From a virus (taxonomy: Duplodnaviria > Heunggongvirae > Uroviricota > Caudoviricetes > Crassvirales): DNA of 64,000 nucleotides. Position numbers and translations under genes: made by a program. The stretch spans positions 1-64,000 of IMG/VR virus record IMGVR_UViG_3300017605_000245; one strand, written 5' to 3'. The notes under the pieces are model-generated. The model was not told the DNA's origin, made no database searches, and saw nothing but the letters and a program-made list of their open reading frames with translations. This document shows, one piece after another, positions 38,810 to 59,390 of this stretch. How positions within the stretch are numbered: the first letter of the stretch is position 1; each line of letters starts with the position of its first letter.

Positions 38810-39847
38810 ATGACAATAAATTTAAATCAATCGAAGGAATTAATATCTAAACGTGCTATATTACGAGAATATACAGATTTAGATATCTTTAGAAAGTATT
38901 TAGATGTTGGTCAAGATGCTATTCCAGGTACAGTTATGCTGTCTCCATTACGGAAAGAAACAAGACCTTCATTTGGATTCTTTTTAGGTGAAAGTGGTGA
39001 AATATGCTTTAAAGACCATCTCTTAGGTGGTGGTGATTTTGTACGATTTGTACAAATGAAATATGGATTAACATATTTTGAGGCTTTAAGTAAAATAGCA
39101 ATTGATTTTGAAATTTCAGATAATTATATCTGTAAAAACTTTGCAAAGACTAAGTTTAATAATACTAGAACTGATTATCCTACAAGAGAAGAATTATTGA
39201 GTAAAGTTACATCATTACGTTTAGGTAAAAATAGACGTAGATGGGCTTCACACGATAAAGAATTTTGGACTAGTTTTGGAATTACTCTTGAAGTTCTAGA
39301 ATTATATAGAGTTGAACCTATATCTTACATCCACATTAACGGTAAAATCTTTAAAGCAGATAAACATGCTTATTGTTTCACAGAAGTAAAAGACGGCGTT
39401 GAAACATATAAAATTTATCAACCATTTAGTGAAAACTTTAAATGGATTAACGGACATAACGATTCCGTATGGCAAGGTTGGGAACAATTACCTAATAGTG
39501 AACACGATTTAATCATTACTAAATCGTTAAAAGATGTAATGGCTTTAAAAGGTGTTTTAGACGTCTCTGCTGTATCTTTACAGTCAGAGAATATAATTCC
39601 AAAGAAACATGTTTTTGACCAATTAGCAAAGAGATTTAAGGTTATTTATGCTCTATATGATAATGACTTCGATAAGGATGTTAACTGGGGTAAACAATTT
39701 GGAGATAAAATATCTTCAGAATTAGGATTAATTCCTTTATATATTCCTGATGAATATAAATCTAAGGATTTTAGTGATTTAGTTAAAAATGTAGGAGAAA
39801 TAAAAGCAAAAGAAATACTAACAGAAAAAATGATGTTACCTTTTTAA
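38810..39847 (+). CDS. DnaG-like DNA primase with degenerate (Cys-less) zinc-ribbon and TOPRIM domain
   Basis: SPLRKETRPSFGFFLGESGEICFKDHLLGGGDFVRFV aligns with the DnaG zinc-binding block CPFHDEKTPSFSV...FHCFGCGAHGNAIDFL, but the Cys/His ligands are replaced. TOPRIM-like DLIITKSLKDVMAL and YALYDNDFDKDVNWGKQ. Confidence 0.6.
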   Translation: MTINLNQSKELISKRAILREYTDLDIFRKYLDVGQDAIPGTVMLSPLRKETRPSFGFFLGESGEICFKDHLLGGGDFVRFVQMKYGLTYFEALSKIAIDFEISDNYICKNFAKTKFNNTRTDYPTREELLSKVTSLRLGKNRRRWASHDKEFWTSFGITLEVLELYRVEPISYIHINGKIFKADKHAYCFTEVKDGVETYKIYQPFSENFKWINGHNDSVWQGWEQLPNSEHDLIITKSLKDVMALKGVLDVSAVSLQSENIIPKKHVFDQLAKRFKVIYALYDNDFDKDVNWGKQFGDKISSELGLIPLYIPDEYKSKDFSDLVKNVGEIKAKEILTEKMMLPF

Positions 39848-40091: not shown

Positions 40092-40509
40092 AGATAAAAT
40101 TTTAAATTATTTAAACCAAAAACCACCTCTTGTTCCAAGAATGAGACTTGACATACATGGAAATCTCAGTAGAGATAGTAATCGTAAAATTATTTATGAT
40201 TTACATCCGTTTAAAACAGGACTACATGTTTTAGATAATCGTTATCGAAAATACTATACAGGTGTAACATTGAACTACATTACTTACGATTTGTTAAAAG
40301 CAAAGTATCGTAAAAGTGATGTAGCTAAATGTTTAAAAGAATTACATTTAAACGGTAAAATTAAGTCATTAAGATGTCCTGACATTAAACAAGTGGTATT
40401 TGAAAATAATCAGTCTATGCATGTAAATTATGTAAGAGGTGGTTATGGGAGCACAAACATTGAAGTATTACACGAATATTTAAATCAATTTATAAAAGAT
40501 GAACAATAA
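40078..40509 (+). CDS. Hypothetical basic protein
   Basis: 143-aa ORF. Start overlaps the ACP gene's end. Confidence 0.3.
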   Translation: MKELEDKILNYLNQKPPLVPRMRLDIHGNLSRDSNRKIIYDLHPFKTGLHVLDNRYRKYYTGVTLNYITYDLLKAKYRKSDVAKCLKELHLNGKIKSLRCPDIKQVVFENNQSMHVNYVRGGYGSTNIEVLHEYLNQFIKDEQ

Positions 40510-40897
40510 ACATTTAGTTGCCGTATACGGTTCTTTAAGAGCTGGATTACACAATCACAGATTATTAGACAATGAAGAATCAACACAGCTTGGTACATTT
40601 AAAACACCACCAATTTACAAACTATTTAGTTTAGGTGGATTTCCAGGGTTACATAAAGATGGTACAACAGAAGTTACTGTAGAGGTATATGAAGTATCTG
40701 AAGATGTATTTAAATCTTTAGATAGATTAGAAGGTTATTATCCTGACAGACTTGACTATTCAATGTATGTTAGAGAACAAATTGAAACACCATTTGGTGA
40801 TGCTTGGATTTATTTTTACAACTCTGATAGATACAGTCAAAATAAGATGGTAGAATCAGGTGATTGGACAGAATATATGAATTTAAAATCAGCTTAA
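40499..40897 (+). CDS. Gamma-glutamyl cyclotransferase-like (AIG2/GGCT fold)
   Basis: LVAVYGSLRAGLHNHRLL...LGGFPGL...VEVYEVSEDVFKSLDRLEGYYP follows the GGCT pattern (YGTL..G..N...L...YP.L......V.G.L..V....LD..EG). Confidence 0.6.
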   Translation: MNNKHLVAVYGSLRAGLHNHRLLDNEESTQLGTFKTPPIYKLFSLGGFPGLHKDGTTEVTVEVYEVSEDVFKSLDRLEGYYPDRLDYSMYVREQIETPFGDAWIYFYNSDRYSQNKMVESGDWTEYMNLKSA

Positions 40898-40898
40898 T

Positions 40899-41138
40899 AT
40901 GTTACCAACAGCAGAAGAATTTTTAAGTAATACATCTATGTTAAATAAAAAACTTTTTCCTAAAAAAGAAAGAGATTTTGACCAAGCAGTAGATAGGATG
41001 AAGGAGTTCGCAAAACTTCATGTTGAAGCAGCTTTGAATAAAGCAAGCAAAGAAGCTCAATTAACAGGAGATGGTCTGTATGAATGGGTAGATGAAGACT
41101 CTATATTAAATGCATATCCATTAACAAATATTAAATAA
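40899..41138 (+). CDS. Hypothetical protein
   Basis: 79-aa ORF. Confidence 0.3.
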   Translation: MLPTAEEFLSNTSMLNKKLFPKKERDFDQAVDRMKEFAKLHVEAALNKASKEAQLTGDGLYEWVDEDSILNAYPLTNIK

Positions 41139-41141
41139 ATT

Positions 41142-41528
41142 ATGAAAAAATTATTATTATTATTCTTAATGCTATTCACATTTAGTGGATTTGCACAAGA
41201 TAAACAGTTTATTAAAAACTACAATTCTGCAATTCTTATTAACGCAGATGGTAGTAATAGTGATTGGCAAGTTTTAGACACAAGACTTATCTTCAATTAT
41301 GGTGGAGATAATACTAAAATTAAAATGTATGCTAATTCTAAAGTATTTAATTTTACAAGAATTGGTGAAACAACTAAAGGTACTACACCTGGAGGTATGA
41401 AACACTATAATTTAAAATTAATGGACGATGAAACAGGTGAAACAGTATTGTTACAAATGTTCGTAGATGAAAAATATGGTTGTAGGTTTGTAGATAATAA
41501 CGGAGATATGCTCCAATTAAGTAATTAA
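41142..41528 (+). CDS. Secreted hypothetical protein
   Basis: Signal peptide MKKLLLLFLMLFTFSGFAQ. 128 aa. Confidence 0.35.
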   Translation: MKKLLLLFLMLFTFSGFAQDKQFIKNYNSAILINADGSNSDWQVLDTRLIFNYGGDNTKIKMYANSKVFNFTRIGETTKGTTPGGMKHYNLKLMDDETGETVLLQMFVDEKYGCRFVDNNGDMLQLSN

Positions 41529-41948
41529 ATGAATAAAGAATTTATACCTTATGAAGAAACTTTAGTTCTATTAAATTTAGGATTTGATGAAGATTGTGTA
41601 GCTTCTTATCGTACACACAATAAGTATAAAGGAGAATTAGACTTTCAATATACAAGTTCTTCATATTTAGAAGAAGAAAATAAAATAAAGTGGATAAAAT
41701 GTATTAAAGCACCTCTTTATCAACAAGCCTTTAGATGGTTTAGAGAGAAATATGACTTACATCCTTCATTTACTCGTTGGCAAGAATTTAACGTTAAGTT
41801 TAAGTCTGATATATTTCCTACATTATATAAAGTACTAATAATTGATGAAAATATTAAAAATACAAAAAATGTAGGTAACTATAATATTTATGAAGAAGCA
41901 GAATTAGCTTGTCTAAGAAAATTAATTGAAATAGTAAAAAATAAATAA
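41529..41948 (+). CDS. Hypothetical protein
   Basis: 139-aa ORF. Confidence 0.3.
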   Translation: MNKEFIPYEETLVLLNLGFDEDCVASYRTHNKYKGELDFQYTSSSYLEEENKIKWIKCIKAPLYQQAFRWFREKYDLHPSFTRWQEFNVKFKSDIFPTLYKVLIIDENIKNTKNVGNYNIYEEAELACLRKLIEIVKNK

Positions 41949-41958
41949 ATTTAACAAA

Positions 41959-42657
41959 ATGAAAAAAATTGGAATCGTAGCTTGGGGAACAAGTGTAAAC
42001 ACTTTCGGAGTAACAACAATGTATGCAGACTTTTTTAGTAAATTTGGTGTAGTTGAAATGATTATGCCTAATGAGACAGAAGCTCGTGATTTAGACTTAT
42101 TAGTATTACCTGGTGGTCCAGATGTAGATACAAGAAGATATCTTGAGAAAGGTGATAAACTATCTTATTGGACACAAAAACCATGTCCTTATAAAGAAAG
42201 ATTTGATGCTGAATTATTACCTTTATATATGGAAAAAAATACTCCTATATTTGGTATCTGTAGAGGTCATCAGACACTATACGTAGAACTTGGAGGTAAA
42301 TTGTTTCAAGACTTATGGGAAGAAGGTTACGACCATCCAACAAATGGTGAGAATCGTAAAACTAAAGTACACTTTGTTAAAACAAACGCAAGAGCTGCGC
42401 AAGGTTTAGCCTTACAATTACCTGCTAAATTTGAAGTGAATTCTATTCACCACCAAGCGGTAGACCACAGACATATGCCTCAGATAGGAACGGTATTAGC
42501 TTGTCATACAAGTAAAGCAGGTAATATTGATGGTATCATTGAAGCAATGACATACTTTCCTGATTATCCTGCACATACAGTACAGTGGCATCCAGAAGAA
42601 ATTAGAGATGATTTCTCAATAGCTTTGATTGAACAATTATTAACTTTAAATGACTAA
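41959..42657 (+). CDS. Class I glutamine amidotransferase-like / peptidase C26 (gamma-glutamyl hydrolase, PuuD-like)
   Basis: LVLPGGPD. Nucleophile elbow GICRGHQ. Later HHQ and W...HPE blocks. Confidence 0.65.
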   Translation: MKKIGIVAWGTSVNTFGVTTMYADFFSKFGVVEMIMPNETEARDLDLLVLPGGPDVDTRRYLEKGDKLSYWTQKPCPYKERFDAELLPLYMEKNTPIFGICRGHQTLYVELGGKLFQDLWEEGYDHPTNGENRKTKVHFVKTNARAAQGLALQLPAKFEVNSIHHQAVDHRHMPQIGTVLACHTSKAGNIDGIIEAMTYFPDYPAHTVQWHPEEIRDDFSIALIEQLLTLND

Positions 42658-42659
42658 TT

Positions 42660-42887
42660 ATGCACGCTACTGCTACAGAACAAAAAAAGTTTAATCCTAT
42701 TACTTTAGAACTTACATTTGAAACGCAAGCAGAATTAGACAACATTAAAAAATTCATTAGAAATGTATCTGCAGATTCACTAAAAGAAGCAGTAGCAATA
42801 CATTCTATTCCTGTGTCAAAACAATTAGATATTCAAACTATTGTAAATTTTATTAATGTTGTAAACACTGCTTTAAAAAATACTTAA
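42660..42887 (+). CDS. Hypothetical protein
   Basis: 75-aa ORF. Confidence 0.3.
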   Translation: MHATATEQKKFNPITLELTFETQAELDNIKKFIRNVSADSLKEAVAIHSIPVSKQLDIQTIVNFINVVNTALKNT

Positions 42888-42889
42888 AT

Positions 42890-43804
42890 ATGCAAACGCT
42901 AAGAAAAAAGAAAATTACTTTATTTAGACCTACAATTTATAGTCGTCATCCATCTCACGATATTCTACGATTAAAACATCGTAAAATTCAAGTATTACCT
43001 TATCGTTCTGTAATTCGTTTTGGCTCAACGACAGAATGTAACGATACTATTGATAAAGGTGGTCAAAGAATTGAAATTAATTCTATTCAGTCTATTAAGA
43101 ATTCAGCCTCTAAACTTCTAATGAAACAGAAATTTATGGAGGCTGAAGTTAAAACTGCAAAATGGTGTAAATATGAACAAATTAATAATGTAGCTGAAGG
43201 TGGTATTGGATTTACTATCAACAATACTACTACTGACCAAATCGAATTTCCAATTGTAGCTAAAGCACATCATGGTTCTAAAGGTCGCGGTAATACGTTA
43301 ATTAAATCTCTTGAAGAATTTGAAGCTTGGAAAGTTGGTAAAACACTTAACCATTATATCTTTGAGAAATTTATGAACTTTGGTCATGAATTCAGATTAC
43401 ATGTAACTGAACAAGGTTGTTTCTACACTTGTAGAAAAGCTTTAAAGGCAGATGTACCTGAAGACCAAAAATGGAGACGTCATGACGATATCTGTGTGTG
43501 GTTCTTAGAAGATTCTGAACATTTTCATAAACCTAATTCATGGGATGATATTGTAGCGGATTGTGTGAAAGCTTTAAAAGCTATTGGTGCAGATATTCTT
43601 TCATTTGACGTAAGAGTTCAAACTCCTACCGATAGTAAAGGTAATAGACGTGAATATCAAGATTTCATTTTACTAGAATGTAATAGTGCTAGTTCAATGG
43701 ATAATGGTAGAGACGAAGTTTCTGTATGTGCTCAGAAATATATTGATGAAATTCCTAAAGTAATTATTGAAAAAGCTAAGAAACATGGTTTATACAGTAG
43801 ATAA
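42890..43804 (+). CDS. ATP-grasp ligase (RimK/GshB-like)
   Basis: KLLMKQKF...FPIVAKAHHGSKGRGNTLIKSLEEFEAW...YIFEKFMNFGHEFRLHV follows the RimK/ATP-grasp pattern (K..q..l....g...P.v.KP..Gs.G.Gv......E.......y..QEfI....dyRv.v). Confidence 0.6.
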   Translation: MQTLRKKKITLFRPTIYSRHPSHDILRLKHRKIQVLPYRSVIRFGSTTECNDTIDKGGQRIEINSIQSIKNSASKLLMKQKFMEAEVKTAKWCKYEQINNVAEGGIGFTINNTTTDQIEFPIVAKAHHGSKGRGNTLIKSLEEFEAWKVGKTLNHYIFEKFMNFGHEFRLHVTEQGCFYTCRKALKADVPEDQKWRRHDDICVWFLEDSEHFHKPNSWDDIVADCVKALKAIGADILSFDVRVQTPTDSKGNRREYQDFILLECNSASSMDNGRDEVSVCAQKYIDEIPKVIIEKAKKHGLYSR

Positions 43805-43825
43805 GTTTAAAAGAATTTAAATAAA

Positions 43826-44878
43826 ATGAAAAAAAGAAAAAATTTAGTTATAATGTATGCTGATGGTAGAGTAAATGACTCCATCAGCGACTTACTTAAG
43901 AATTTAGCGGAAGAAGTTACTGTTGTAAATCATCGTAATCCTACATCAAGACCTGACTTACTTATATTTACAGGAGGTGAAGATGTACATCCTTCTTTCT
44001 ATAATGAACAGACAGGTGCTTATACACAATGTAATATTAAAAGAGATAATGTTGAAAGAGACACTTTTGATATGTATTATGATGTACCTAAATTAGGTAT
44101 TTGTAGAGGATCACAATTCTTAACTGTAATGAGTGGAGGTAAACTTGCTCAACATGTTGAAAATCATGGTAATTCTCATACTATTGAGAATATCTTCGGT
44201 GGTAAAATGACAGTTACATCAACACACCATCAAATGATGTACCCATTTAATATTAAAGATAAATCTAACTATGAGTTAATAGCGTGGTCTGAATACTTTA
44301 GAAGTAAAGCTTACTTAAACGGAGACAATAAAGAAATTGATACACCTAATGATTTCTTAGAACCTGAGGTAGTATATTATAAACCAAGTCAATCATTATG
44401 TATTCAAGGTCATCCTGAGTTTAATACAGCATCTGAAGAATTTGTAGATTTCACATTAAATCTTATTAAAAAGTATATCTTTAACGAAGTAGGTCAATTT
44501 AAGAATGATGAAGTTCAAGACGTATTAGATGCTATTGAACAAGCTCAATTTATTCCTCTTAATAAGAAAGTAACTACTACGGAGAGTTTAGGTTGGCATA
44601 CATTTAATCCTAATCCAGGAATTGAAGCACAATCTTTTAAAGTTAGAACATCGCCACCTAAAATCATTGATTTACTACGTAGACAATACGAAGAAGAATT
44701 GAAACATGAAAGACATGAAACAATTCCACAAATGAAGCAATCAGAGACTATTCGTCGTTTTCTAGATTCAACTGAAGATCTTAATAAAACAGATAATGTT
44801 TCTGAAACCGAATCAACTGAAAATAAACGTAGTGTTTCAAGTTATTATTTCAAAGGTATCAATAATTATAAAAAATAA
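43826..44878 (+). CDS. Second class I glutamine amidotransferase-like / C26 hydrolase with C-terminal extension
   Basis: LLIFTGGEDV. GICRGSQFL. STHHQM. CIQGHPEF. 350 aa. Confidence 0.6.
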   Translation: MKKRKNLVIMYADGRVNDSISDLLKNLAEEVTVVNHRNPTSRPDLLIFTGGEDVHPSFYNEQTGAYTQCNIKRDNVERDTFDMYYDVPKLGICRGSQFLTVMSGGKLAQHVENHGNSHTIENIFGGKMTVTSTHHQMMYPFNIKDKSNYELIAWSEYFRSKAYLNGDNKEIDTPNDFLEPEVVYYKPSQSLCIQGHPEFNTASEEFVDFTLNLIKKYIFNEVGQFKNDEVQDVLDAIEQAQFIPLNKKVTTTESLGWHTFNPNPGIEAQSFKVRTSPPKIIDLLRRQYEEELKHERHETIPQMKQSETIRRFLDSTEDLNKTDNVSETESTENKRSVSSYYFKGINNYKK

Positions 44879-44883
44879 ACAAA

Positions 44884-45696
44884 ATGAATAAATATAATAT
44901 TACAATCGGCTCTGACCCTGAAGTGTTTTTAGAAAAAAATGGTGAAATCGTATCTGCAATTGATTTAATTCCAGGTACTAAATGGGAACCTCATCCAATT
45001 ACAGATAAAGGTCATTTCATTCAAACTGACAATATTGCTTTCGAATTCAACATTCCACCTTCTAAAACGGAAGGTGAGTTTGTAGAGAATATTAATTTTG
45101 TCATGAATTATCTAGACGTAATTGCAAAAGCAAATGGTGGTGAATTATCGAAAAAGTCGAGTGGTTTAATTGCTGAAGAACATTTGGTTCATCCTCAAGC
45201 AATGGAATTTGGTTGTGAACCTGATTTCAATCCTTACATTCAAGATGTAAACCCTCGACCTGAAGCAGTAGATACAAATCTTAGATGTGTTGGTGGTCAT
45301 ATCCATATCGGATATCCTAATCCAAGTCAAGAAACATCTGAGAAAATTGTAAAAGCTTTCGACATGTTTGTAGCATTACCTGCGTTATTGATTGATACAG
45401 ATGAACGTAGACGTGAACTGTATGGTAAAGCAGGCGCTTTTAGATTTAAAGACCCATGGGGTGTAGAATGTCGTGTATTATCCAATTTCTGGATTCACTC
45501 TGATGAATTGATGAGTTGGGTTTACAGAAATACAATCAAAGCAGTGAACGCTGTTTTAGATGGTGAAATTGATGATTTACTTGAAAAATACTCAGCAAGA
45601 GTAGTAGATGCTATTAACACTAATGATAAATCGTTAGCTAAAGAACTAATAAGAGATATTTTTCAAAAAGAAGTAGAAGAAGTATTAACAAAATAA
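44884..45696 (+). CDS. GS/GCS2-like carboxylate-amine ligase (amidoligase)
   Basis: N-terminal ITIGSDPEVFL (G-x-[DE]-x-E-hhh, as in YbdK/GCS2 TLGVEEEFLLVD). GGHIHIG (the HVHVG block of GS-like ligases). Nearly the same gene set was noted in phage amidoligase operons in published comparative-genomic work. Confidence 0.5.
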   Translation: MNKYNITIGSDPEVFLEKNGEIVSAIDLIPGTKWEPHPITDKGHFIQTDNIAFEFNIPPSKTEGEFVENINFVMNYLDVIAKANGGELSKKSSGLIAEEHLVHPQAMEFGCEPDFNPYIQDVNPRPEAVDTNLRCVGGHIHIGYPNPSQETSEKIVKAFDMFVALPALLIDTDERRRELYGKAGAFRFKDPWGVECRVLSNFWIHSDELMSWVYRNTIKAVNAVLDGEIDDLLEKYSARVVDAINTNDKSLAKELIRDIFQKEVEEVLTK

Positions 45697-45712
45697 CAAA
45701 ATAACAAAGCCA

Positions 45713-47638
45713 ATGTGTGGAATTTTTGGTCAAGCAACGAACAATCCTAATAAAATTAATCAGTCTAATATTAAAATATTAGGTATGGCAAATGAAACAA
45801 GAGGTCGAAACTCTTGTGGAATAACCTATGACGGTGAAATATATCTAGGATTAGATAAAGATAAATTATTTACAGACTTTGCAAAAGGTAAAACTTTTAA
45901 AGCAAAGAAATATCCTGTAATGTTTGGTCATACCAGACAAGCAAGTGTAGGAGTTATTAATCATCATAATGCTCATCCATTTGGTTTTGGTGACCATAAT
46001 GAAGGTTATGAATTTATTGCAGTACATAACGGTACATTATTGAATCATGACGAATTAGCGAAGAAATATGAAATTGATACATTTCCTTCTTATTTAAACG
46101 ATAACAATATAAAATCGTATCGTACAAAAATTGATAGTGAAATTCTGTTAGAAATTATTCATAAAACAAATAGTTTAAAGGTTTTATCTGAATACAATGG
46201 TAGAGCGGCTTTAGTTTGGACAGATACTAAGAATCCTAATACAATTTATTTGTATAGTGGTAAAAGTGTACCTAGTGAAGGTGACGGACCAAACTTAGCA
46301 GTTGAAGAAAGACCTTTAAATGTATGGGTTGAAAATAAAAACAGTTTCTATTTCTCATCATTACCTGAAAGTTTGTATATAATAGGTGGTGATGCGAATA
46401 ATGTATTTCAAATCGATTACAACACTGTATATGCTGTTAAAAATGGTGATTTTAAACACGCTAGTAAAATTCTTATTAGTAGAAAGAAATGTTATCATGA
46501 ACGGAAGACGGTTTACGGGAGTACAACACATACAACAACGAATTCCAGCGTGGGGAACTCGTTTAGAAATCCTAATGCGTGTGGTTATGACCTCAATCGC
46601 AAAAGAACTATAGACACATCTGCGGTTGCTGATTATAGTTTTCAGAAAATTCACATTTTAGATGACAAATCTATCTTACAAGGTAAAACTAAAGATGGAA
46701 CTTACATTCAATCTTTTAGATATTATAGAAATGGTCATTTACTAAATGGAATTTGGATGTACATTCCTGAATATGGTTTCTATCCTGTAGCACAAACTGA
46801 AACACAAATGCATGATTTTATAAATCGTCATATGGGTGAAAAGTTTGATACTGTTACTGGTGAGTTTGATGTATTTAAGAAAATGAAAGTAGGTGAAGGA
46901 ATTATTGCTTTTAGTACTGTACCTGAAGGACTTGAAATGTGTAAATATTTTGTAGAAGGTGTAAGATTGGAAGACCTTATTGACTATAAAGTAATGGTTA
47001 ATCATAAAGCTCAAGGACTTAGAGATTTCTTTGACCCAATGAAAATGAGTCATATGGCTACAGACCCTGTTGTAAGTCTTTGTAGAGGTGCTCTTGACGC
47101 ACAAGGAATTTATTTCAATGGTGTATTATTTACAGGTATTTATGAAGGTTTAGACTATGATAAGAAATATTATTGTAGACACGGTAATTTATGGAAAACT
47201 AAATCTTTAGTTGAAACAGACGAACCTTTAGTAATTCAATTATCTTACGAAAAGAAACCTGACCCTACATTTTCAGCTAAAACATTGGATGCAACTATCC
47301 ATACATTAGCTACAATGGAATCTGATTACATTCGTGAACAAGTTCAAACTAAAATTGATTTTGATTTAAAAAAGAAATCTGATTTAGAAACGGAGGTTAA
47401 TGAAGTTGATGAAACATATTTTGATAATGAAAATAAAGAAGTTGTGACTAAAGCACAAATTGCTGAATTCTTATCAGAATCAATTGTTGAGTCGTTCGAA
47501 ACCATGGGAAACGAAATAGAAAGTTTAGAGATAGACTTAGAAAGATTTCCAGACCACGAATATACAAAAGCCGTAAAAAGTACGGTAATTGATATCAAAC
47601 TGTTATTAAGTGAATATACTAGAAAGTTAAAAAATTAA
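45713..47638 (+). CDS. Class II (Ntn) glutamine amidotransferase domain protein with long C-terminal extension
   Basis: Starts MCGIFGQ (N-terminal nucleophile Cys, as in GlmS/PurF/AsnB MCGI). 641 aa. I found no PP-loop SGGxDS in the C-terminal part, so it is not an AsnB/QueC-type synthetase by this test. Confidence 0.6.
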   Translation: MCGIFGQATNNPNKINQSNIKILGMANETRGRNSCGITYDGEIYLGLDKDKLFTDFAKGKTFKAKKYPVMFGHTRQASVGVINHHNAHPFGFGDHNEGYEFIAVHNGTLLNHDELAKKYEIDTFPSYLNDNNIKSYRTKIDSEILLEIIHKTNSLKVLSEYNGRAALVWTDTKNPNTIYLYSGKSVPSEGDGPNLAVEERPLNVWVENKNSFYFSSLPESLYIIGGDANNVFQIDYNTVYAVKNGDFKHASKILISRKKCYHERKTVYGSTTHTTTNSSVGNSFRNPNACGYDLNRKRTIDTSAVADYSFQKIHILDDKSILQGKTKDGTYIQSFRYYRNGHLLNGIWMYIPEYGFYPVAQTETQMHDFINRHMGEKFDTVTGEFDVFKKMKVGEGIIAFSTVPEGLEMCKYFVEGVRLEDLIDYKVMVNHKAQGLRDFFDPMKMSHMATDPVVSLCRGALDAQGIYFNGVLFTGIYEGLDYDKKYYCRHGNLWKTKSLVETDEPLVIQLSYEKKPDPTFSAKTLDATIHTLATMESDYIREQVQTKIDFDLKKKSDLETEVNEVDETYFDNENKEVVTKAQIAEFLSESIVESFETMGNEIESLEIDLERFPDHEYTKAVKSTVIDIKLLLSEYTRKLKN

Positions 47639-47642
47639 TCAA

Positions 47643-49355
47643 ATGAAAGAAAAAATTGTTGTTACAATAAATAATGAGAGTCTACCTCAATCACAATGTA
47701 GAAAATTTGACGCAGGTTGGTATAAAATTGGAGATATAAATGTTCAAAATTCAGGAGGATGTTACTTTATAGGAGACCAATTCTATAGAGAGGAAACAGG
47801 TAGAGTTGTTTTCGATTTAAGAAAAGGTAGTTATGTATTGAAAAATCAAGATGTTGTTGAAGGTATCATTACCTTTGACAACGCTGGTTACAATTTAGGA
47901 CATTTCACTTATTCTGATGCAGATATTGTAGTAAATACTGTTTCAGGTAATAAATATCCTCTTATTTCTGAAGAAATCATTCTTGATAATAAGAAATATA
48001 AAGAGAGATTATCTAATGGTGAATATTATGACATTGAGTTATTACCTTCATCTCAATTTAATAAGATAACTCCACCTACTAACGATTACAAAACAAGTTT
48101 ACCTTATGACTCAAAAGGTATTACTGACGTTTATTTAGATAAACATGTAAAATCAGATGTTAAAATTCACCCAAAAGTAGAAGATTATTCTAAAATCTTA
48201 GAAGGTCTTTCTTTCGGTCTTGAATTTGAAACTGTGGCAGGTGTGTTACCTACAAGAATTTTAGATAAAACAGCTTTAATTCCATTGAGAGATGGTTCTA
48301 TTGCAGGTATTGAATACGTTACAGTTCCTTTAGAGGGTGCGAAAGGTATTCAAACGTTATTGACAACTGTTGAAGAACTTAATAAAAGAACTAAGTTTGA
48401 TGACACTTGTTCAATGCATTTACATTTAGGTAACGTACCAAGAACTAAAGAATTTATTTTAGCATTTTTCAAATTAAGTTTGAAATTTCAGAATGATATC
48501 TTTGAAATGTTCCCATTATACAAAAAGTATAATTTTGGTGTAAAACGTAAAAACTATAGTAAACCTTACGATAGATATCAATTCTTATCTCAAATGGATA
48601 AGTCGATTAATTCTAATAATATTAACGATAATTTTGACGTACTATATTCGTATTTATCACAAGGAGAACCTTTTGGTGTGGTAAATAATGATTTGAAAAA
48701 CGTTGATAGTCATCCTGCAGATAGAAATGGTACTCAAAAATGGAATATCGCAAATCGTTACTATTTCCATAATTTCATTCCATTAATCTTTGGTAATAAA
48801 CAAACGATTGAGTTTAGAATTCATACCCCAACGTATGATGCTAATAAAATATTATTCTTCTTATATTTTAATTCAATCTTAGTTAATTTTACTAAGAAAT
48901 ATGAACGTGAAATTCTACAAGACCCATATTTTCTTTCTCAATTTAAAGGTTTAAAATCTCTAGTAATTTACTATATTGAAAACAACGTTAAATCTGTTAG
49001 TCGTATAAGATTTAGAGATTTTATTATAGATTCTATTGATAAAAGAAAAGGTGAAATTGCAAATCAATCTGCAAAAGGAGATATTGTAGGTAAAGAAAAT
49101 AATGTTAGATGTTCTACATATATCAATTGGAAGTCATATATGAAGATAACTGATTCTACAATAAGTGGTAACTTAATTCATTCACTTTCTGAATTAGATA
49201 TGTGTTATCAAGAAAGAAGACAACTTATCTTAGACACATATCATGCTAATAAAATCAGTCTTACTCAAGCTAGAGTTGAGAGTGATGCTTTAGAGAAAGA
49301 TTACAGAACAAGAAGAGATATTATTAGTAAAACTAACGAACCTGTAGAATGGTAG
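47643..49355 (+). CDS. Second GS/GCS2-like amidoligase candidate (large)
   Basis: GLEFETVAG (G-x-E-x-E) and SMHLHLG parallel the motifs of the 44884-45696 protein. 570 aa. Confidence 0.4.
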   Translation: MKEKIVVTINNESLPQSQCRKFDAGWYKIGDINVQNSGGCYFIGDQFYREETGRVVFDLRKGSYVLKNQDVVEGIITFDNAGYNLGHFTYSDADIVVNTVSGNKYPLISEEIILDNKKYKERLSNGEYYDIELLPSSQFNKITPPTNDYKTSLPYDSKGITDVYLDKHVKSDVKIHPKVEDYSKILEGLSFGLEFETVAGVLPTRILDKTALIPLRDGSIAGIEYVTVPLEGAKGIQTLLTTVEELNKRTKFDDTCSMHLHLGNVPRTKEFILAFFKLSLKFQNDIFEMFPLYKKYNFGVKRKNYSKPYDRYQFLSQMDKSINSNNINDNFDVLYSYLSQGEPFGVVNNDLKNVDSHPADRNGTQKWNIANRYYFHNFIPLIFGNKQTIEFRIHTPTYDANKILFFLYFNSILVNFTKKYEREILQDPYFLSQFKGLKSLVIYYIENNVKSVSRIRFRDFIIDSIDKRKGEIANQSAKGDIVGKENNVRCSTYINWKSYMKITDSTISGNLIHSLSELDMCYQERRQLILDTYHANKISLTQARVESDALEKDYRTRRDIISKTNEPVEW

Positions 49356-50053
49356 TACAACATTATATTAAAGAAACCCGTTATGGGTTACATGCAGATT
49401 ATTCTAAATTATTAGGACCAGATTGGTCAATCTTTTTGAAAGATATGTTAGAGTCGGACTATGCTTCATATTTAGCACATATGCTTGACCAGATTTACCT
49501 TTCAGGTGATAAAGTATATCCTACTAAAAAAGAAGATCTATTTAAGGCATTTACAGCTACCAATTTTGACGAGATTAAAGTCGTCATTATTGGTTCTGAG
49601 CCTAAAAATGAATTATCTAATGGTTTAGCCTTTGGTACATACGGTGCAGTAAAAGACCCCATTAAATGTCCTCATTTGAATTTAATTCAAGATAACTTAA
49701 AGTTTAATAAACTCGTATCTGAACATAGATTCTTTGACCGTTCAATGGTAAGTTGGACACAACAAGGTGTGATGATGTTAAATTCCTCATTGGTTGCAGA
49801 TAGTACACTTCCAAATAAATATTCTCTGTATTTCAGAAATTTTACAAGAGAAGTAATAAAAGCACTATCTGAAGAAAAAGCAGGAATTGTATTTGCTTTC
49901 ACAAGTACAGAATTATATAACTTGTATAAAGATAGTATTGATGACGCATATCATTATATCTTTCATTATCCAGTTGTAGACATGTCTTGTGATATCTTTG
50001 ATGATATTAATGAAAAATTAAAAGACACGCGTGAAATACCTATTATATGGTAA
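49349..50053 (+). CDS. Uracil-DNA glycosylase family-1 homolog with substituted catalytic residues
   Basis: [41 protein letters not shown] aligns with UNG [57 protein letters not shown] matches [23 protein letters not shown] aligns with HPSPLS. The water-activating GQDPYH is GSEPKN here (D to E, Y to K, H to N). Confidence 0.6.
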   Translation: [234 protein letters not shown]

Positions 50054-50523
50054 ATAAGGAACTCATTTTTATACCAGAAAATGTTCCAAGTTTAAAAAAC
50101 AGTAAAGTTAAAACCTCGAGAGGTATTTTCTCATCTACAACGGTGAAGAAGTACCTCTCTTCTTTAGGAATCCAAAGATATTCTACTAGACGTAAAGAAG
50201 TGATTGGTTATAAGACAAGACCTAATCACATCGAATCTTTACGTGGACAATTCGAAGAAGCTTTGAAGAATAAAGGAGAGCCTATACTATTATCGTTTCA
50301 TTTTGTAAGAAATACTAAAAGATTATTTGATTTTGGAAATGCTACTGAGTTAATCTTTGATTTACTTACCGCACATGACATTATTTCAGATGATAATATT
50401 AGTATTGTAATACCGTCAGTTATGACAATTGATGGTACATTACCTAATGAAGATAATATAAGACATCTACAATGGTATAGTGTAGATAAAGAAAAACCTG
50501 GAGTATTTCTTAAAATAAGTTAA
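50047..50523 (+). CDS. Hypothetical protein
   Basis: 158-aa ORF. Confidence 0.3.
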   Translation: MVNKELIFIPENVPSLKNSKVKTSRGIFSSTTVKKYLSSLGIQRYSTRRKEVIGYKTRPNHIESLRGQFEEALKNKGEPILLSFHFVRNTKRLFDFGNATELIFDLLTAHDIISDDNISIVIPSVMTIDGTLPNEDNIRHLQWYSVDKEKPGVFLKIS

Positions 50524-50542
50524 TACGATTATAAACAAAAAT

Positions 50543-50836
50543 ATGAAAAAAGAAACGTTACAAAAAATAATCTCTTTAGCTTCATTCGTATTTGAAGACA
50601 AAGATTATAATAAATTTGTAAAGTTAATCGTTAGCGATGAGTATACCTCCGCAAGGTTGATTTTAGAAGATAAAATGGAAGAATTTGATATAATTCTTTT
50701 ATTAGAAGAACAAGATGAAGTAATCTTATCTCAATACAAAATGACTAAAGAATTAGAGGACACTGTAATGAATCTAATTGAAGAGGAAAATAATGTCGAG
50801 AGAAAAGAAATTAGAGAATTTATTGAGCGATGTTGA
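50543..50836 (+). CDS. Hypothetical acidic protein
   Basis: 97-aa ORF. Confidence 0.3.
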   Translation: MKKETLQKIISLASFVFEDKDYNKFVKLIVSDEYTSARLILEDKMEEFDIILLLEEQDEVILSQYKMTKELEDTVMNLIEEENNVERKEIREFIERC

Positions 50837-51800
50837 GAACATAGACTTAACGTTAAGCTATAGTCGAGTATCTGACTTCGATAGGAACGGTCCAAAAGCC
50901 TTACTAGAGAAGTCTAGACTTGACAATCAAGGTGTTAAAATGGGTTCTATTATTGACGATATGTTGTTTAGTCCTGACGACTTTAAGACTAGATACTACA
51001 TATCTGAATTTAATGAACCAACTGCAACATTAGGTACATTGGCTGAGATAATCATTAAAAATTATGAAGAAATCCCAGATGTACCTGAAATATTAAATAT
51101 TATTTCAAGAAGCGGACTATGGAAATCCGTGAAAAACCAAGATTTACTTATTAAGAATTTCAATACTCCTGAATTCTGGGGATATTTGACAGATATTTTT
51201 AATAGTAGAAATAAAATTTTAATTACTAATGAGGAAAAGAGCAAGGCGGAAGAAATTACCACAGTACTTGTAAATCATCCATTTAGTAAACATATCTTTA
51301 GTGCTGATTTAGAACATATTTATCAACATAAATTTGAAACTCAAATTGGGCAGTTTAAATTTAGAGGAATAATAGATATTGTATCAATTGACCACAAAAA
51401 GAAAAAGGTTTATTTTATAGATTTGAAAACTGGTGCAGGTTCAGCAAATGAATTTACATCAAGTTTTGTTAAATTTAGATATTATCTTCAAGAAGCAGTT
51501 TATCAATTAGCTTTTGAACAAGTATGTAAAGATTTAGAATTGACGGGCTATGAACAAGCTCCTTTCGAATTCTTATACATTGGTTTAAAAGAACGAATTC
51601 CTGTGAGGTTTGTCATAACTCAGAAGTGGCACGATAGTGCTTTAAATGGCTTTAAAACAACCTCAGGTTATGAATATAAAGGATTGTACCAACTAGTAGA
51701 TGAAATATATTTTCATTGGAGAAACAAAGTGTACGATTTACCTAAAAATATTTATGATGGGAACGGAATAATTGAAATTGAAGATAATTTTATAAATTAA
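50778..51800 (+). CDS. PD-(D/E)xK nuclease (RecB/Cas4-like exonuclease)
   Basis: GIIDIVSIDHKKKKVYFIDLKTGAGS ... YYLQEAVYQLAF matches the D...(E/I)DLKTG...QxxxY signature of RecB-family nucleases. The true start may be the internal Met at 50793. Confidence 0.55.
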   Translation: MKRKIMSREKKLENLLSDVENIDLTLSYSRVSDFDRNGPKALLEKSRLDNQGVKMGSIIDDMLFSPDDFKTRYYISEFNEPTATLGTLAEIIIKNYEEIPDVPEILNIISRSGLWKSVKNQDLLIKNFNTPEFWGYLTDIFNSRNKILITNEEKSKAEEITTVLVNHPFSKHIFSADLEHIYQHKFETQIGQFKFRGIIDIVSIDHKKKKVYFIDLKTGAGSANEFTSSFVKFRYYLQEAVYQLAFEQVCKDLELTGYEQAPFEFLYIGLKERIPVRFVITQKWHDSALNGFKTTSGYEYKGLYQLVDEIYFHWRNKVYDLPKNIYDGNGIIEIEDNFIN

Positions 51801-51803
51801 TAG

Positions 51804-52325
51804 ATGTATAATAAATCCAAAACATATTTATTACCACTTGTATCTGAATTAATACATTTTGAAAAGGACTTTATTAAGTACATACATAATACATTTATGT
51901 ATATTCAAAATGATAACACACCATATATCTGTTTATTACACGATTTCTCATTTAGGAATCCTGAGTTTACAGCATATGAACATCGCTTAACATCTAATGA
52001 TTTATTTGTTAAGCATATTGATTTAGACAATCAAGTACTATATGTATTTGAATTTCCAAAAGATTATATTCAGGAATACTACTCGTTAGCTGATTCTAAA
52101 TATTCAGAATTTGGTAACGATGCTAAAGAACTAATATTAAAATTTTGGTCAGATATATATAAGGGTAATCCCGAAGCAATTCCTGTTTTGGTTGGAATCA
52201 AGCAAATCTTGTATAAAGATAACAAATTAAGAGAAAAATTACAAAGAGAGTTAAAGGTTGAAATTGATGAAAATCAAGAGTTAGGTGAAAATGTAGATGT
52301 AGAAAAAGAAACTTTTAAAATGTAA
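51804..52325 (+). CDS. Hypothetical protein
   Basis: 173-aa ORF. Confidence 0.3.
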   Translation: MYNKSKTYLLPLVSELIHFEKDFIKYIHNTFMYIQNDNTPYICLLHDFSFRNPEFTAYEHRLTSNDLFVKHIDLDNQVLYVFEFPKDYIQEYYSLADSKYSEFGNDAKELILKFWSDIYKGNPEAIPVLVGIKQILYKDNKLREKLQRELKVEIDENQELGENVDVEKETFKM

Positions 52326-52335
52326 TTTTTAATTA

Positions 52336-54264
52336 ATGAATTTAAATAAATCAAAATTAAACGATATTAAAACTCCATGGGGAGAAATTGGTTATCCTGT
52401 ATTCAAAAGAACTTACGCAAGACGACTTCAAGAAGATAAAATAGACTCACCAACTGAAGAATTTGTAGATACTGTCACTCGAATTGTAGAAGCATCCAAT
52501 ATTCAGTTAAATGTAGGTTTTACTGAAGCAGAACAATATAGACTTGCCGAAATATTATTATCCTTAAAAGGTTCTGTTGCAGGAAGATTTTGGTGGCAAT
52601 TAGGTACACATACTGTAGATAAATTAGGATTATTGTCTTTACAGAATTGTGCATTTACCATTGTAAACGACCCAGTAAAACCTTTTACTTGGGCATTTGA
52701 TGCTCTAATGCTTGGATCTGGTGTAGGTTTTAATATTCAAAGACACAACGTTTATGAATTACCTCGAGTACAAGATAAAATTACAATCACAAGAGTAGAT
52801 AGTAAAGATGCTGATTTTATTGTACCTGATTCAAGAGAAGGGTGGGTTAAACTTTTAGCAAAAGTACTGAAAGCTCATTTTTATGGTAAAGAAGGTTTCA
52901 CTTATTCCACAATTAATATTAGAGGTAAAGGTGCACCGATTAAAAGTTTTGGTGGAACAGCATCTGGTCCAGAAGAATTATGTGCGGGTATTGCAGAAAT
53001 TCATAATTTATTAAACAAACGAGCAGGCAAAAAGGTTCGACCTATTGATTGTTTAGATATTATGAACATTATTGGACAAATTGTTGTATCTGGAAATGTG
53101 AGAAGAAGTGCTCAGATAGCAATTGGTGACCCTGATGACGTTGATTACTTAACTGCGAAGAGATGGGATTTAGGTACAATTCCTAATTGGAGAAATAATT
53201 CAAATAATTCTGTTGCTGTAAGTAATTTAAATGATTTACATCCTTTATTTTGGGAGACCTATAATCAAGGTGAACCATATGGAATGATAAATTTACATTC
53301 GTCACGAAAATACGGATTATTAGGTGATACTAGATATCCTGACCCTAGAGTAGAAGGCTATAATCCTTGTGCAGAACAATCGTTAGAAGACAAAGAAACA
53401 TGTTGTTTAGCTGAAGTATTTTTACCGAATATTAATTCTGCCGCAGAATTATTAGAAGTTTGTCAATATCTTTACAGAATAAATAAACATAGTCTCTCTT
53501 TACCTTGTCATTTAAAAGATACTGAAAAAATTGTAAATAAGAATATGCGAATGGGTATCGGTATTACGGGTACTTTTCAAGCCACGGAAGAACAGAGAAG
53601 TTGGTTGAGAGATTGTTATGAAAAACTTAGAGAATATGATAAGTATTATTCTAAAAAGAATGGTTTTCCAGAATCAATAAAATTAACAACATCTAAACCA
53701 AGTGGTACTTTAAGTTTACTGGCAGGTGTCACACCTGGCGCAAATGTAAATCCTGCAGGACCATTCTACTTACGAAGAGTTCGTATGGCAGTAGATAGTC
53801 CTTTATTGGTACAATGTGAAAAGAATGGATATCCTATTGAATGGCGTAGAAATTTTGATAAAAGTATTGACCATACTACAAAGGTAGTAACATTCCCTTG
53901 TTCTGTGCCCGAACATACTCCAATTGCCGCCACTACTACCGCAATTCAACAACTTGAATTTATTAAATGGGTTCAAGAGAATTGGTCAGATAATGCTGTT
54001 TCTGTGACTGTTACTTATAAGATGGATGAATTGGAAGGTATTAAAAAATGGTTAGCTGAGAATTATACTGAAAATGTAAAATCAGTATCTTTCTTACTGT
54101 ACGCTGGACACGGTTTTGACCAAGCTCCATACGAAACTATTAGTGAAGAAGAATATTTGGAATTAGTATCTAAAGTCACACCTATTACATATTTAGAAGT
54201 AATAGATGAATCCTCTATGGATGGAATGGATGAATGTAGTTCTGGAGCATGTCCTATAAAATAA
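52336..54264 (+). CDS. Ribonucleotide reductase, probably class II (NrdJ-like, monomeric)
   Basis: VFKRTYARR (RNR N-terminal Y.RTY.R). Active-site block NPCAEQSL...ETCCLAEVFL (RNR NPCGE...C.L.S.NL). C-terminal Cys pair CSSGACPIK. No NrdB-like gene nearby. Confidence 0.6.
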   Translation: MNLNKSKLNDIKTPWGEIGYPVFKRTYARRLQEDKIDSPTEEFVDTVTRIVEASNIQLNVGFTEAEQYRLAEILLSLKGSVAGRFWWQLGTHTVDKLGLLSLQNCAFTIVNDPVKPFTWAFDALMLGSGVGFNIQRHNVYELPRVQDKITITRVDSKDADFIVPDSREGWVKLLAKVLKAHFYGKEGFTYSTINIRGKGAPIKSFGGTASGPEELCAGIAEIHNLLNKRAGKKVRPIDCLDIMNIIGQIVVSGNVRRSAQIAIGDPDDVDYLTAKRWDLGTIPNWRNNSNNSVAVSNLNDLHPLFWETYNQGEPYGMINLHSSRKYGLLGDTRYPDPRVEGYNPCAEQSLEDKETCCLAEVFLPNINSAAELLEVCQYLYRINKHSLSLPCHLKDTEKIVNKNMRMGIGITGTFQATEEQRSWLRDCYEKLREYDKYYSKKNGFPESIKLTTSKPSGTLSLLAGVTPGANVNPAGPFYLRRVRMAVDSPLLVQCEKNGYPIEWRRNFDKSIDHTTKVVTFPCSVPEHTPIAATTTAIQQLEFIKWVQENWSDNAVSVTVTYKMDELEGIKKWLAENYTENVKSVSFLLYAGHGFDQAPYETISEEEYLELVSKVTPITYLEVIDESSMDGMDECSSGACPIK

Positions 54265-54325
54265 TTTACTTTTTGTTAGGTGGTCTCATATATTTTTTGT
54301 ATATTTGTAAAAATACAGCAAAAAT

Positions 54326-54832
54326 ATGTTAGATAAATTAAATGCAAAACTTGTAGAAACAAGATCTAGTAAATCAGGTAGCACTTACAAAGTGTTTACA
54401 TTTGAATGTGAAAATTGCGGATACGATATTAAAAGTCAATTATCTCAATTAAAAACTCATTCAGGTAAATGTCGAAAATGTGCTCAAAGAAAAAGACCTT
54501 ATGAACACATTTTAAATGAATTAATTCATACTTGTAATAGAAAAAACAGTCATGATGTCACAATTGAATATGATGATTTTATAGACTTAATAAAAGAATC
54601 TAAGTGTCACTATTGTGATAAAGAACTTGTTTTTAATCCCCATACAAGAGATGAGAATTCAAATTATGTTTCAAGAGCTTACCAGTTAGATCGAAAAGAT
54701 AACAGTTTAGGATATGTAAAAGAAAATTTAGTAACTTGTTGTTGGAATTGTAATAGAATGAAATCAGATATTTATACATATGAAGAATTTTCACTATTAA
54801 GTCCAATACTAAAACAAATACACAATAAGTGA
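54326..54832 (+). CDS. HNH endonuclease
   Basis: CHYCDKEL...AYQLDRKDNSLGYVKENLVTCCWNCNRMK (HNH C..C...H/R...D..N...N...C..CN..K). N-terminal zinc-ribbon CENCG...CRKC. Confidence 0.5.
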   Translation: MLDKLNAKLVETRSSKSGSTYKVFTFECENCGYDIKSQLSQLKTHSGKCRKCAQRKRPYEHILNELIHTCNRKNSHDVTIEYDDFIDLIKESKCHYCDKELVFNPHTRDENSNYVSRAYQLDRKDNSLGYVKENLVTCCWNCNRMKSDIYTYEEFSLLSPILKQIHNK

Positions 54833-54897
54833 TTTACAAATATTTAGGAATACCGTGTTGGGTATATAGTTTATATCTGACAGAGAATTAATAAATT

Positions 54898-55113
54898 ATG
54901 AAAAAATTTCTAATTAAAATAACAAATGTTACTACAACAACAGGTGGTGGTAAACGAAAACCTTTACGGTGGAGACAAAATCAAAATATAACTAAATATA
55001 CAACAGATTTAGAATATTATCAAAAAGATTTTGCAAGTTTTTATTATTGTGGGAGACCTTATTTTAAAACTACAACCTCTAAAGTTGTTATTTTAAAAGA
55101 GATTTCTTTATAA
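54898..55113 (+). CDS. Hypothetical protein
   Basis: 71-aa ORF. Confidence 0.25.
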   Translation: MKKFLIKITNVTTTTGGGKRKPLRWRQNQNITKYTTDLEYYQKDFASFYYCGRPYFKTTTSKVVILKEISL

Positions 55114-58697: not shown

Positions 58698-59390
58698 ATG
58701 AGTAAAAATACAGTAGTCCTATTAGGACATTATGGTTCAGATGAGGTGATAAGTTGTTCAGCTTGGACAAGCACCTCTCGTGAACTTACAGATGAAAAGA
58801 GGAGTAGAATTCCTAAATTAATTAACATGTTATGGTCAGAAGGTCATGAGACACCATTTGAGAAGGCTACAATCCACTTTCTCGTAGATTGTGACATAGC
58901 ATCCCACATTCATCTTTTAAAGCATAGAATCGCTTCTATTAATGCTGAAAGTGCTAGATATAAAGAATTGAAGGAAGATAAAATGTATATTCCTGAAGAT
59001 TGGTATAAACCTTATCAAAATGATGATGACTATAAAGGTATTGCAAATACAGGTATTGGTCATACTAAATCTTTAGCTGACGCATTAAAAGTTTATTCTG
59101 AATTAGGTAATAGACTTTATCATGAATCATTAGAACAGTTATCTAAATACGGTAATCGTAAAAGAGCTAAAGAGTCTGCACGATTCTTTAAAGGTTATAA
59201 CTCTCAAATTCAATCTGACATTAGTTTTAATATGAGAAGTTTTGCTAATTTTATTAAACTCAGAAATAGTGAACATGCTCAATTAGAGATTAGAGAAATT
59301 GCACAACAAATGTGGGATTTAGTAGAAGGAATTGAAGGACAACCTTTCAAATATAGTTTGGAAGCAATTAGTAATCGAATTAATAAATAA
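58698..59390 (+). CDS. thyX: Flavin-dependent thymidylate synthase ThyX
   Basis: ThyX signature LKHRIASINAESARY (RHRxxSxNExSxRY). 230 aa. Confidence 0.75.
   Translation: MSKNTVVLLGHYGSDEVISCSAWTSTSRELTDEKRSRIPKLINMLWSEGHETPFEKATIHFLVDCDIASHIHLLKHRIASINAESARYKELKEDKMYIPEDWYKPYQNDDDYKGIANTGIGHTKSLADALKVYSELGNRLYHESLEQLSKYGNRKRAKESARFFKGYNSQIQSDISFNMRSFANFIKLRNSEHAQLEIREIAQQMWDLVEGIEGQPFKYSLEAISNRINK

Follow-up and report, generated by a model that had tools for sequence, protein, structure and literature searches.

A clade of probably non-catalytic uracil-DNA glycosylase homologues in marine crAss-like phages

Poxviruses and herpesviruses encode family-1 uracil-DNA glycosylases (UDGs; those of family 1 are here called UNGs), namely D4/E4 in the former and, in the latter, BKRF3 of Epstein-Barr virus (EBV) and ORF46 of murine gammaherpesvirus 68 (MHV68) and of Kaposi's sarcoma-associated herpesvirus (KSHV), whose role in replication is structural and independent of catalysis (PMC4450493, PMC5934625, 10.1101/2023.05.19.541466). 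In vaccinia virus, the processive polymerase complex includes D4 as a subunit (PMC4450493), viral replication of an EBV UNG knockout is fully restored by a catalytically dead form of the enzyme (PMC5934625), and MHV68 vUNG binds the viral polymerase and the processivity factor independently of its catalytic residues, the catalytic-mutant virus replicating normally (10.1101/2023.05.19.541466). For bacteriophages, a preprint has proposed that trans-encoded UDGs act ahead of family-A polymerases on the template strand (10.1101/2025.03.26.645540), and a UDG is listed among the nucleotide-metabolism genes of crAss phages (Yutin et al., PMC7886860). Here we analyze a UDG-like gene, with a product of 234 amino acids (aa), in a stretch of 64,000 nucleotides (nt) from a crAss-like phage (positions 1 to 64,000 of IMG/VR record IMGVR_UViG_3300017605_000245, hereafter the window). 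Like the UNGs of poxviruses and herpesviruses, it is virus-encoded, belongs to family 1 and lies among replication genes; however, those UNGs are active glycosylases with all five motifs, whereas the window protein appears to have lost its catalytic apparatus, and the window phage has no known equivalent of the proteins they partner with (A20, the processivity factors).

The original prediction, made from the sequence without database searches, held that the protein aligns along its length with family-1 UDG, and both sequence and fold comparisons bear this out. In a phmmer search of PDB sequences, the best match was the Bacillus subtilis UDG (3zoq, E=1.8e-15); about 40 UNG chains were matched, including those of Escherichia coli, Vibrio, Coxiella, a herpesvirus, mimivirus and human, and nothing else was significant. 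The "ung" equivalog models of NCBIfam match as well (E=2.6e-25), and the length is close to the ~225 aa of family-1 UNGs. An AlphaFold2 (AF2) model, computed from a 119-sequence alignment, has a mean predicted local distance difference test (pLDDT) score of 96.7 and a predicted template modeling (pTM) score of 0.92; in Foldseek it superposes on solved UNGs with template modeling (TM) scores of 0.74-0.81, root-mean-square deviations of 2.3-3.0 Å and a probability of 1.0, and a fold search of BFVD with the same model retrieved no fold other than UNG. Given that the E-values are far under chance and that synteny is kept in more than 15 independent contigs, the match is not fortuitous, and we consider the window protein, on sequence and predicted structure, to be a true family-1 UNG homologue with an intact alpha/beta UDG fold. 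Nevertheless, it does not pass the curated family-1 thresholds that we used (the equivalogs TIGR00628 and NF003592, and the gathering threshold, GA, of Pfam PF03167): the NCBIfam scores are far under the cut-offs (89.5 versus 162 bits; for TIGR00628, 75.6 versus 185.75), and the Pfam UDG score of 16.5 bits is under the GA of 24.3. The best PHROG is phrog_12143 (E=1e-23), of unknown function. Because these thresholds and four of the five UNG motifs are failed, the label "uracil-DNA glycosylase" should not be applied to this protein.

The active site was examined by alignment with E. coli Ung, the sequence of which, on checking, reproduces the textbook numbering D64/Y66/H67/F77/N123/H187/L191. 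Of the five motifs required for UNG activity (PMC5934625), four are degenerate or absent in the window protein and the uracil-binding motif is the only one retained (Table 1). As originally proposed, the water-activating loop GQDPYH has become GSEPKN (residues 82-87), in agreement with the alignment to canonical UNGs: Glu84 takes the position of the catalytic Asp64, Ser replaces Gln63, and Lys and Asn occupy the positions of Tyr66 and His67, so that the Tyr66 position has no aromatic residue; the loop is also two residues shorter. Two of the three Ser-containing DNA-pinching loops are degenerate or deleted, namely the Pro-rich loop, in which PPS reads KCPHL and the Ser is gone, and the His/Leu loop, and the third, the Gly-Ser loop, reads FTST instead of LWGS. 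In the original prediction the HPSPLS His was taken to be kept, but the loop itself is missing: where E. coli has the 13 aa "PHPSPLSAHRGFF", the window protein has the 5 aa "PVVDM", so that both the catalytic His187 and the intercalating Leu191 are absent. H206, in "IFHYP", was considered as a substitute catalytic His and rejected; it aligns with E. coli K184, and the position is His in just 1 of the 28 members of the clade described below, being mostly Glu. The catalytic remnants are limited to the pyrimidine-recognition Asn (N145 in MMLNSS, equivalent to E. coli N123) and the stacking Phe (F95 in GLAFG, equivalent to F77), both of which had been recognized in the original prediction, together with Pro85. 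The alignment places the changes inside the catalytic loops, not outside them, and the degeneracy is much greater than first described. The losses take in the catalytic Asp and His, the thymine-excluding Tyr and the adjacent His, the base-flipping Leu loop, the Ser of the Pro-rich loop and the Gly-Ser motif; ordinary uracil excision is accordingly unlikely, and the capacity to excise uracil efficiently from duplex DNA has very probably been lost. Thus, fold, homology, uracil-binding Asn and stacking Phe are common to the window protein and to family-1 UNGs such as E. coli Ung, human UNG2 and B. subtilis UDG, whereas Asp64 (Glu), Gln63, Tyr66, His67, His187, the Leu191 loop, the Pro-rich Ser and the Gly-Ser motif are not, and the window protein carries an extra N-terminal beta-hairpin (residues 2-17, with strands at 2-6 and 13-17 in the AF2 model). 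The corresponding N-terminal extension is absent, according to the alignment, from the UDGs of gut phages crAss001 and cr108_1 and from cellular UNGs; within it, H5 and Y18 are each kept in 24 of 28 clade members.

A word-indexed search recovered only three close relatives (35-47% identity), with the water loops DSEPTG, ADTPFP and GNQPFQ, hence E, T and Q at the Asp site, and all three are without the His/Leu loop. An exhaustive HMMER search with a profile built from these and the window protein (four sequences) yielded 9,823 UNG-family proteins at E<=1e-3, including 100 at E<=1e-30, and 172 retrieved sequences of at most 300 aa each were aligned to E. coli Ung. The leucine loop is cut to eight residues or fewer in 38 of the 172, with a core of 28 displaying the full architecture of the window protein; this clade comprises at least 28 full-length representatives, clustered at 50% identity. 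The Asp site is occupied by Glu in 19 of 28 members and by Q, T, N, C, F, H or R in the remainder, and the residues of the water loop are highly variable, whereas Asn145 and Pro85 are each retained in 27 and Phe95 in 21. New invariant or nearly invariant residues have appeared at D130, R167, F184 (invariant), T185 (26/28) and W234. Across the 172 representatives, 71 sequences have Asp64, and His187 accompanies it in 68 of them; where position 64 is Glu, His187 is kept in only 17 of 33, and Gln63 is never kept once Asp64 has changed to Glu (0/53). In a crude neighbor-joining tree without support values, the loop-deleted forms fall within a 77-tip clade almost wholly devoid of Asp64, with xxEPY forms as sisters.

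At the syntenic gene in the lineage to which the window phage belongs, the active sites form a graded series, from QD with His (cr108_1) through xE with His (loci L013 and L014) and xE without His (L017 and Cellulophaga phage phi14:2) to the deleted loop of the window clade. The NCBIfam ung scores drop along the series (163 bits for cr108_1, 148 for crAss001, 130 for phi14:2, 121 for P0004 and 89.5 for the window protein). crAss001 Gp74 and cr108_1 gp035 occupy the same slot as the window gene and, within the collection of annotated phages, rank with the nearest matches of its product. They retain GQDPYP and, in an intact loop, the His ("HPA"); judging by their sequences, these gut crAss UDGs look catalytically competent, whereas the window protein does not. 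The gene of the closest cultured relative, phi14:2 g042, annotated "uracil-DNA glycosylase" and set in an identical order of genes, down to the amidoligase island described below, already has the Asp to Glu change (GKEPYR) and has lost the catalytic His, with Asp in its place; it differs in that the Tyr is kept, the loop has its full length and the N-terminus is short, and represents an intermediate stage outside the loop-deleted clade. Locus L023 is canonical except for a QD to NE change (GNEPYH, PPSL, LLLNTV, LWG, HPSPM).

Two further kinds of variant were encountered in the family. One is a phage UNG-like subfamily combining G[KR]EPY (Asp64 to Glu) with TGIPFA and LLLD (Asn123 to Asp), in which the His loop is mostly kept (L013:9977-10693, L014:9968-10696, P0064, P0067, P0070, P0072, P0092, P0114 and P0154); in L013 and L014, the Asn123 to Asp form occupies the same slot as the window gene, directly after Amidoligase_2. 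In the 1996 work of Kavli et al., the Asn to Asp change reportedly makes human UNG a cytosine-DNA glycosylase. The other comprises tandem UNG domains in single polypeptides, namely P0144 (438 aa), P0106 (712 aa) and P0053 (464 aa). The first of the two UNG domains is canonical in both P0144 and P0106 (GQDPYH, HPSPLS) and the second degenerate (GQEPPC or GAEPVS), P0106 having in addition an N-terminal HhH-GPD EndoIII-like domain; the second copy in P0053 is without the Tyr (GQDPGK). Degenerate UNG domains thus also occur beside active ones in cis. The tandem proteins are apparently non-phage, and no fusion of the loop-deleted clade was found among the larger hits checked.

The major capsid protein encoded in the window is 63% identical to that of phi14:2 (Crassvirales, Steigviridae), a cultivable relative propagated on Cellulophaga baltica, and its further matches are to gut crAss phages; the window is therefore from a crAss-like (Crassvirales) phage, described as marine. 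Among annotated phages, relatives of the UDG-like protein occur mainly in crAss-like ones, the other carriers being chiefly Flavobacterium phages and unannotated Listeria-phage records. Positions 43000-55000 had no megablast match in the phage collection, so that the relatives are reachable at the protein level only. The order of genes in the window (primase, amidoligase island, UDG-like gene, RusA-like gene, a small open reading frame (ORF), PD-(D/E)XK nuclease, ribonucleotide reductase (RNR)) is repeated in phi14:2 (g036-g054), in cr108_1 and, where long enough, in all metagenomic contigs with a close relative. crAss001 displays the same arrangement of primase, UDG (Gp74), RusA-like resolvase, PD-(D/E)XK nuclease and RNR, with ThiF/E1-like and metalloprotease genes in the slot of the window amidoligases. 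Accordingly, by position, the window gene is the orthologue of the conserved crAss "UDG" of the replication/recombination module. Its two junctions are alike: in each, the upstream gene ends in a Trp and a stop codon that overlap the Met-Val codons with which the next gene begins (49349-49355 and 50047-50053), and these ATGGTAG and ATGGTAA overlaps suggest that the gene is translationally coupled to both neighbors. The RNR and ThyX genes, noted as nearby in the original prediction, lie 2.3 kb and 8.6 kb downstream, respectively. The window contains no second UDG and, with about 12 kb of the source contig lying outside it, no dUTPase; in relatives L001 and L027, a dUTPase gene is located just downstream. 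The possibility of U-containing phage DNA was considered and rejected as unsupported, ThyX being present and close relatives carrying dUTPase.

We suggest, with a probability of roughly one half, that the window protein is a pseudo-glycosylase maintained for a task other than excision, probably that of a replisome or recombination accessory, a reading that draws on sequence, the structural model and the analogy with viral UNGs. The protein would no longer flip and excise uracil from duplex DNA, and its UDG fold would have been retained in these phages for a second, non-catalytic job. The position of the gene makes a role in replication or recombination the most economical one. Most likely, the protein would work alongside the phage DNA polymerase and the products of the neighboring recombination genes, as a structural or accessory subunit. 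The residual Asn/Phe pocket may still contact single-stranded DNA (ssDNA) or a pyrimidine; speculatively, on a single-stranded template the intercalation loop would not be needed. Of the two outcomes that the original prediction had envisaged for the substitutions, conversion into a binder is thus plausible, whereas specificity for modified pyrimidines is not supported, ThyX being present and the modification genes discussed below not having been found. Several observations weigh against this reading of a pseudo-glycosylase in replication or recombination. Retention of Asn145 and Pro85 (27/28 each) and the Glu majority at the Asp site (19/28) hint at continuing selection on a ligand pocket and possibly on chemistry, and UDGs of families 2 and 3 function without the Asp or the His. 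The very loop that the window protein has lost, the leucine loop, was of importance to the replication role in EBV. Furthermore, every loop-deleted member lies directly after Amidoligase_2, a link to the island that cannot be separated from shared ancestry, and the dN/dS value given below comes from a single close pair with few substitutions.

The same retained residues could instead belong to a slow glycosylase or one of altered specificity, in which Glu84 positions the water, the enzyme works without the Asp/His pair in the manner of MUG/TDG and SMUG1, and the pocket opened by the loss of Tyr66 takes thymine-like or 5-substituted pyrimidines or bases in ssDNA. Conservation of Asn145, Phe95 and Pro85 and the prevalence of Glu at the Asp site fit such an enzyme, and xxEPY variants with the His and all loops are frequent among phage UNG-like proteins (17/33), intact forms such as L023 suggesting that Glu can belong to a working site; the sister subfamily with Asn123 changed to Asp may likewise be taken, in view of the reported effect of that change, as specificity being explored. 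MUG/TDG and SMUG1, members of families 2 and 3 in the same superfamily, are active without the Asp/His pair; however, they keep the intercalation and DNA-binding loops, whereas the window protein is without them and derives from family 1. Moreover, the Asp-site residue is unfixed in the clade, even among the closest relatives, and the deleted His/Leu loop and the lost Pro-rich and Gly-Ser motifs are needed for backbone compression and base flipping (motif list of PMC5934625). PHROGs and Pfam scans of the window ORFs, which leave aside the same ~12 kb of the contig, revealed no base-modification genes (hydroxymethylase, base-modification kinase, transferase), including dUMP/dCMP hydroxymethylase, 5-hydroxymethyldeoxyuridine (5-hmdU) kinase, aGPT-Pplase or similar, and nothing positively indicating DNA base modification, such as pyrimidine hypermodification, was found. 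The product of ThyX is ordinary dTMP. We therefore regard an altered glycosylase as unlikely. Functional decay is a different matter: in favor of a relic heading to pseudogenization, the UDG-like gene ranks among the fastest-evolving of its region and, at 33-47% identity to the window in relatives, evolves faster than most of its neighbors (50-74% for the RusA-like protein, 47-66% for the PD-(D/E)XK nuclease, 52-79% for the COOH-NH2 ligase), its variable water loop pointing the same way. Yet the full-length ORF is intact in every one of the at least 28 divergent representatives, the fold is predicted with a pLDDT of 96.7, the clade has its own invariant residues and a conserved N-terminal addition, and dN/dS is 0.12 between L005 and L010 (97% amino-acid identity, GNQPF/W type). 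On available evidence, the gene is still under selection, purifying in the one close pair, and a functionless relic is highly improbable.

It remains to consider the amidoligase island, which the UDG-like gene was originally described as closing. That description holds, the start codon of the gene overlapping the Amidoligase_2 stop codon; a functional tie is another matter, the two modules being separable in other phages. The seven-gene island (window 40499-49355) is conserved in marine crAss-like phages, cr108_1 and cyanophage Lbo-JY46. Conceivably, the UDG-like protein is a component of this system, a pyrimidine- or nucleotide-recognizing subunit or carrier for the island enzymes, which might make a nucleobase, nucleotide or DNA base decorated with an amino acid or peptide. 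Amidoligase_2 is immediately upstream in all 11 loop-deleted loci with upstream sequence, the two genes overlapping by 4-17 nt in most of them and directly abutting otherwise, and the degenerate forms of phi14:2, L013, L014, L017, L018 and L022 likewise adjoin the island. However, the UDG that accompanies the island in cr108_1 is fully canonical (GQDPYP, PHPA), in crAss001 and Flavobacterium phage FpV4 a canonical UDG stands next to the primase without an island, and in Leptolyngbya phage Lbo-JY46 the island is followed by an unrelated protein, with no UDG-like gene beside it. Two candidate exceptions were rejected: the FpV4 protein is not degenerate, GQDPYP and HPA being canonical, and the protein after the Lbo-JY46 amidoligase homologue is not a cryptic UDG (BLASTP E=1.4, no UNG match in PDB). 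From these arrangements, the island is a separable, variable insert beside the UDG slot. In addition, the loop-deleted loci are all from a single phage lineage in which the order of genes is conserved, so that adjacency may simply be inherited, and the coupling to the downstream RusA-like gene is equally tight. Membership in the island system thus appears improbable to us. A more specific version, in which the loop-deleted fold would be a non-cleaving pyrimidine "reader" serving as the base-recognition subunit of the amidoligase/GATase/ATP-grasp/GGCT island, and the complex would install or process an amino-acid- or peptide-type pyrimidine modification in the nucleotide pool or in phage DNA, is slightly less probable still; if true, it would imply a base-modification pathway of a kind not yet described.

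Table 1. Features of the UDG-like gene and its surroundings (window coordinates).
Feature	Coordinates	Strand	Basis and remarks
Rest of variable island: GGCT, GATase-I, ATP-grasp, GATase-I, COOH-NH2 ligase, GnAT class II	40499..47638	+	Pfam, PHROGs
Amidoligase_2, last island gene	47643..49355	+	Pfam, PHROGs; stop overlaps UDG-like ATG (ATGGTAG)
UDG-fold ORF, family-1 UNG-derived, 234 aa, probably non-catalytic	49349..50053	+	Sequence homology and predicted fold
N-terminal extension, residues 1-23, clade-specific	49349..49417	+	AF2 secondary structure, clade conservation
GSEPKN, residues 82-87, counterpart of water-activating loop GQDPYH	49592..49609	+	Alignment
NGLAFG, F95 = uracil-stacking Phe77	49619..49636	+	Alignment, clade conservation
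DPIKCPHLN, degenerate Pro-rich "PPS" DNA-backbone loop	49655..49681	+	Alignment
MMLNSS, uracil-binding motif, N145 = E. coli Asn123	49772..49789	+	Alignment, clade conservation
AFTSTE in place of Gly-Ser "LWGS" motif	49895..49912	+	Alignment, clade conservation
Strand beta4 and stub at deleted His187/Leu191 "HPSPLS" leucine loop, 12 residues	49955..49990	+	Alignment
RusA-like resolvase	50047..50523	+	PHROGs; ATG overlaps UDG-like stop (ATGGTAA)
PD-(D/E)XK exonuclease, conserved crAss replication/recombination module	50778..51800	+	Pfam, PHROGs, synteny
Class II (B12-dependent) ribonucleotide reductase	52336..54264	+	Pfam, PHROGs
ThyX flavin-dependent thymidylate synthase	58698..59390	+	Pfam Thy1 E=1.7e-33

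Several other genes of the window deserve mention. Its replication and recombination genes further include those for PolA (28043-29905), DnaB (35841-36965) and Sak4 (36997-37764), and the primase gene is at 38810-39847. Positions 51804-52325, after the PD-(D/E)XK nuclease, encode a conserved 173-aa protein without a family match, which has counterparts (30-64% identity) in phi14:2 and in almost every related metagenomic locus that extends far enough and was undetected in the gut phages cr108_1 and crAss001; in L001 and L027, it is this protein that the dUTPase follows, and none is found there in the window. Free-standing HNH or endonuclease VII-type genes at 33532-34056 and 54326-54832, in the replication region, are probably homing endonucleases, and similar inserts split RNR small-subunit genes in relatives (L001:13361-15362). 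A GroEL-type chaperonin (9664-11163, minus strand; phrog_5725, E=2.5e-123) adjoins the large terminase gene. Finally, a nicotinamide phosphoribosyltransferase beside a PRPP synthetase (30125-32637) looks like NAD salvage, and Lbo-JY46 has a similar pair, PncB nicotinate phosphoribosyltransferase and PrsA (L030:1-2679), directly before its amidoligase island.

The concept of a non-catalytic role for viral UNGs is already established. What is new here is a naturally occurring clade of apparent pseudo-UNGs in marine crAss-like phages, with a function that we infer from sequence and analogy; a literature search on degenerate crAss and phage UNGs, "UDG-F1-like" proteins and the phage amidoligase island turned up no description of the loop-deleted clade. 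Both phi14:2 g042 and P0002 (by its JGI name) are annotated "uracil-DNA glycosylase", a job that the clade is very unlikely to do, and the deoxyuridine (dU) repair capacity of marine crAss-like phages is consequently not safely read from annotation. The graded series, from QD with His through xE with and then without His to the loop-deleted forms, provides, together with the Asn-to-Asp subfamily, ready variants with which UNG catalysis and specificity could be dissected. Should the non-catalytic reading hold, these phages would represent a natural experiment in which the replication function of the crAss-type UDG has outlasted the removal of its active site, and an idea so far established only for poxviruses and herpesviruses would be extended to bacteriophages.

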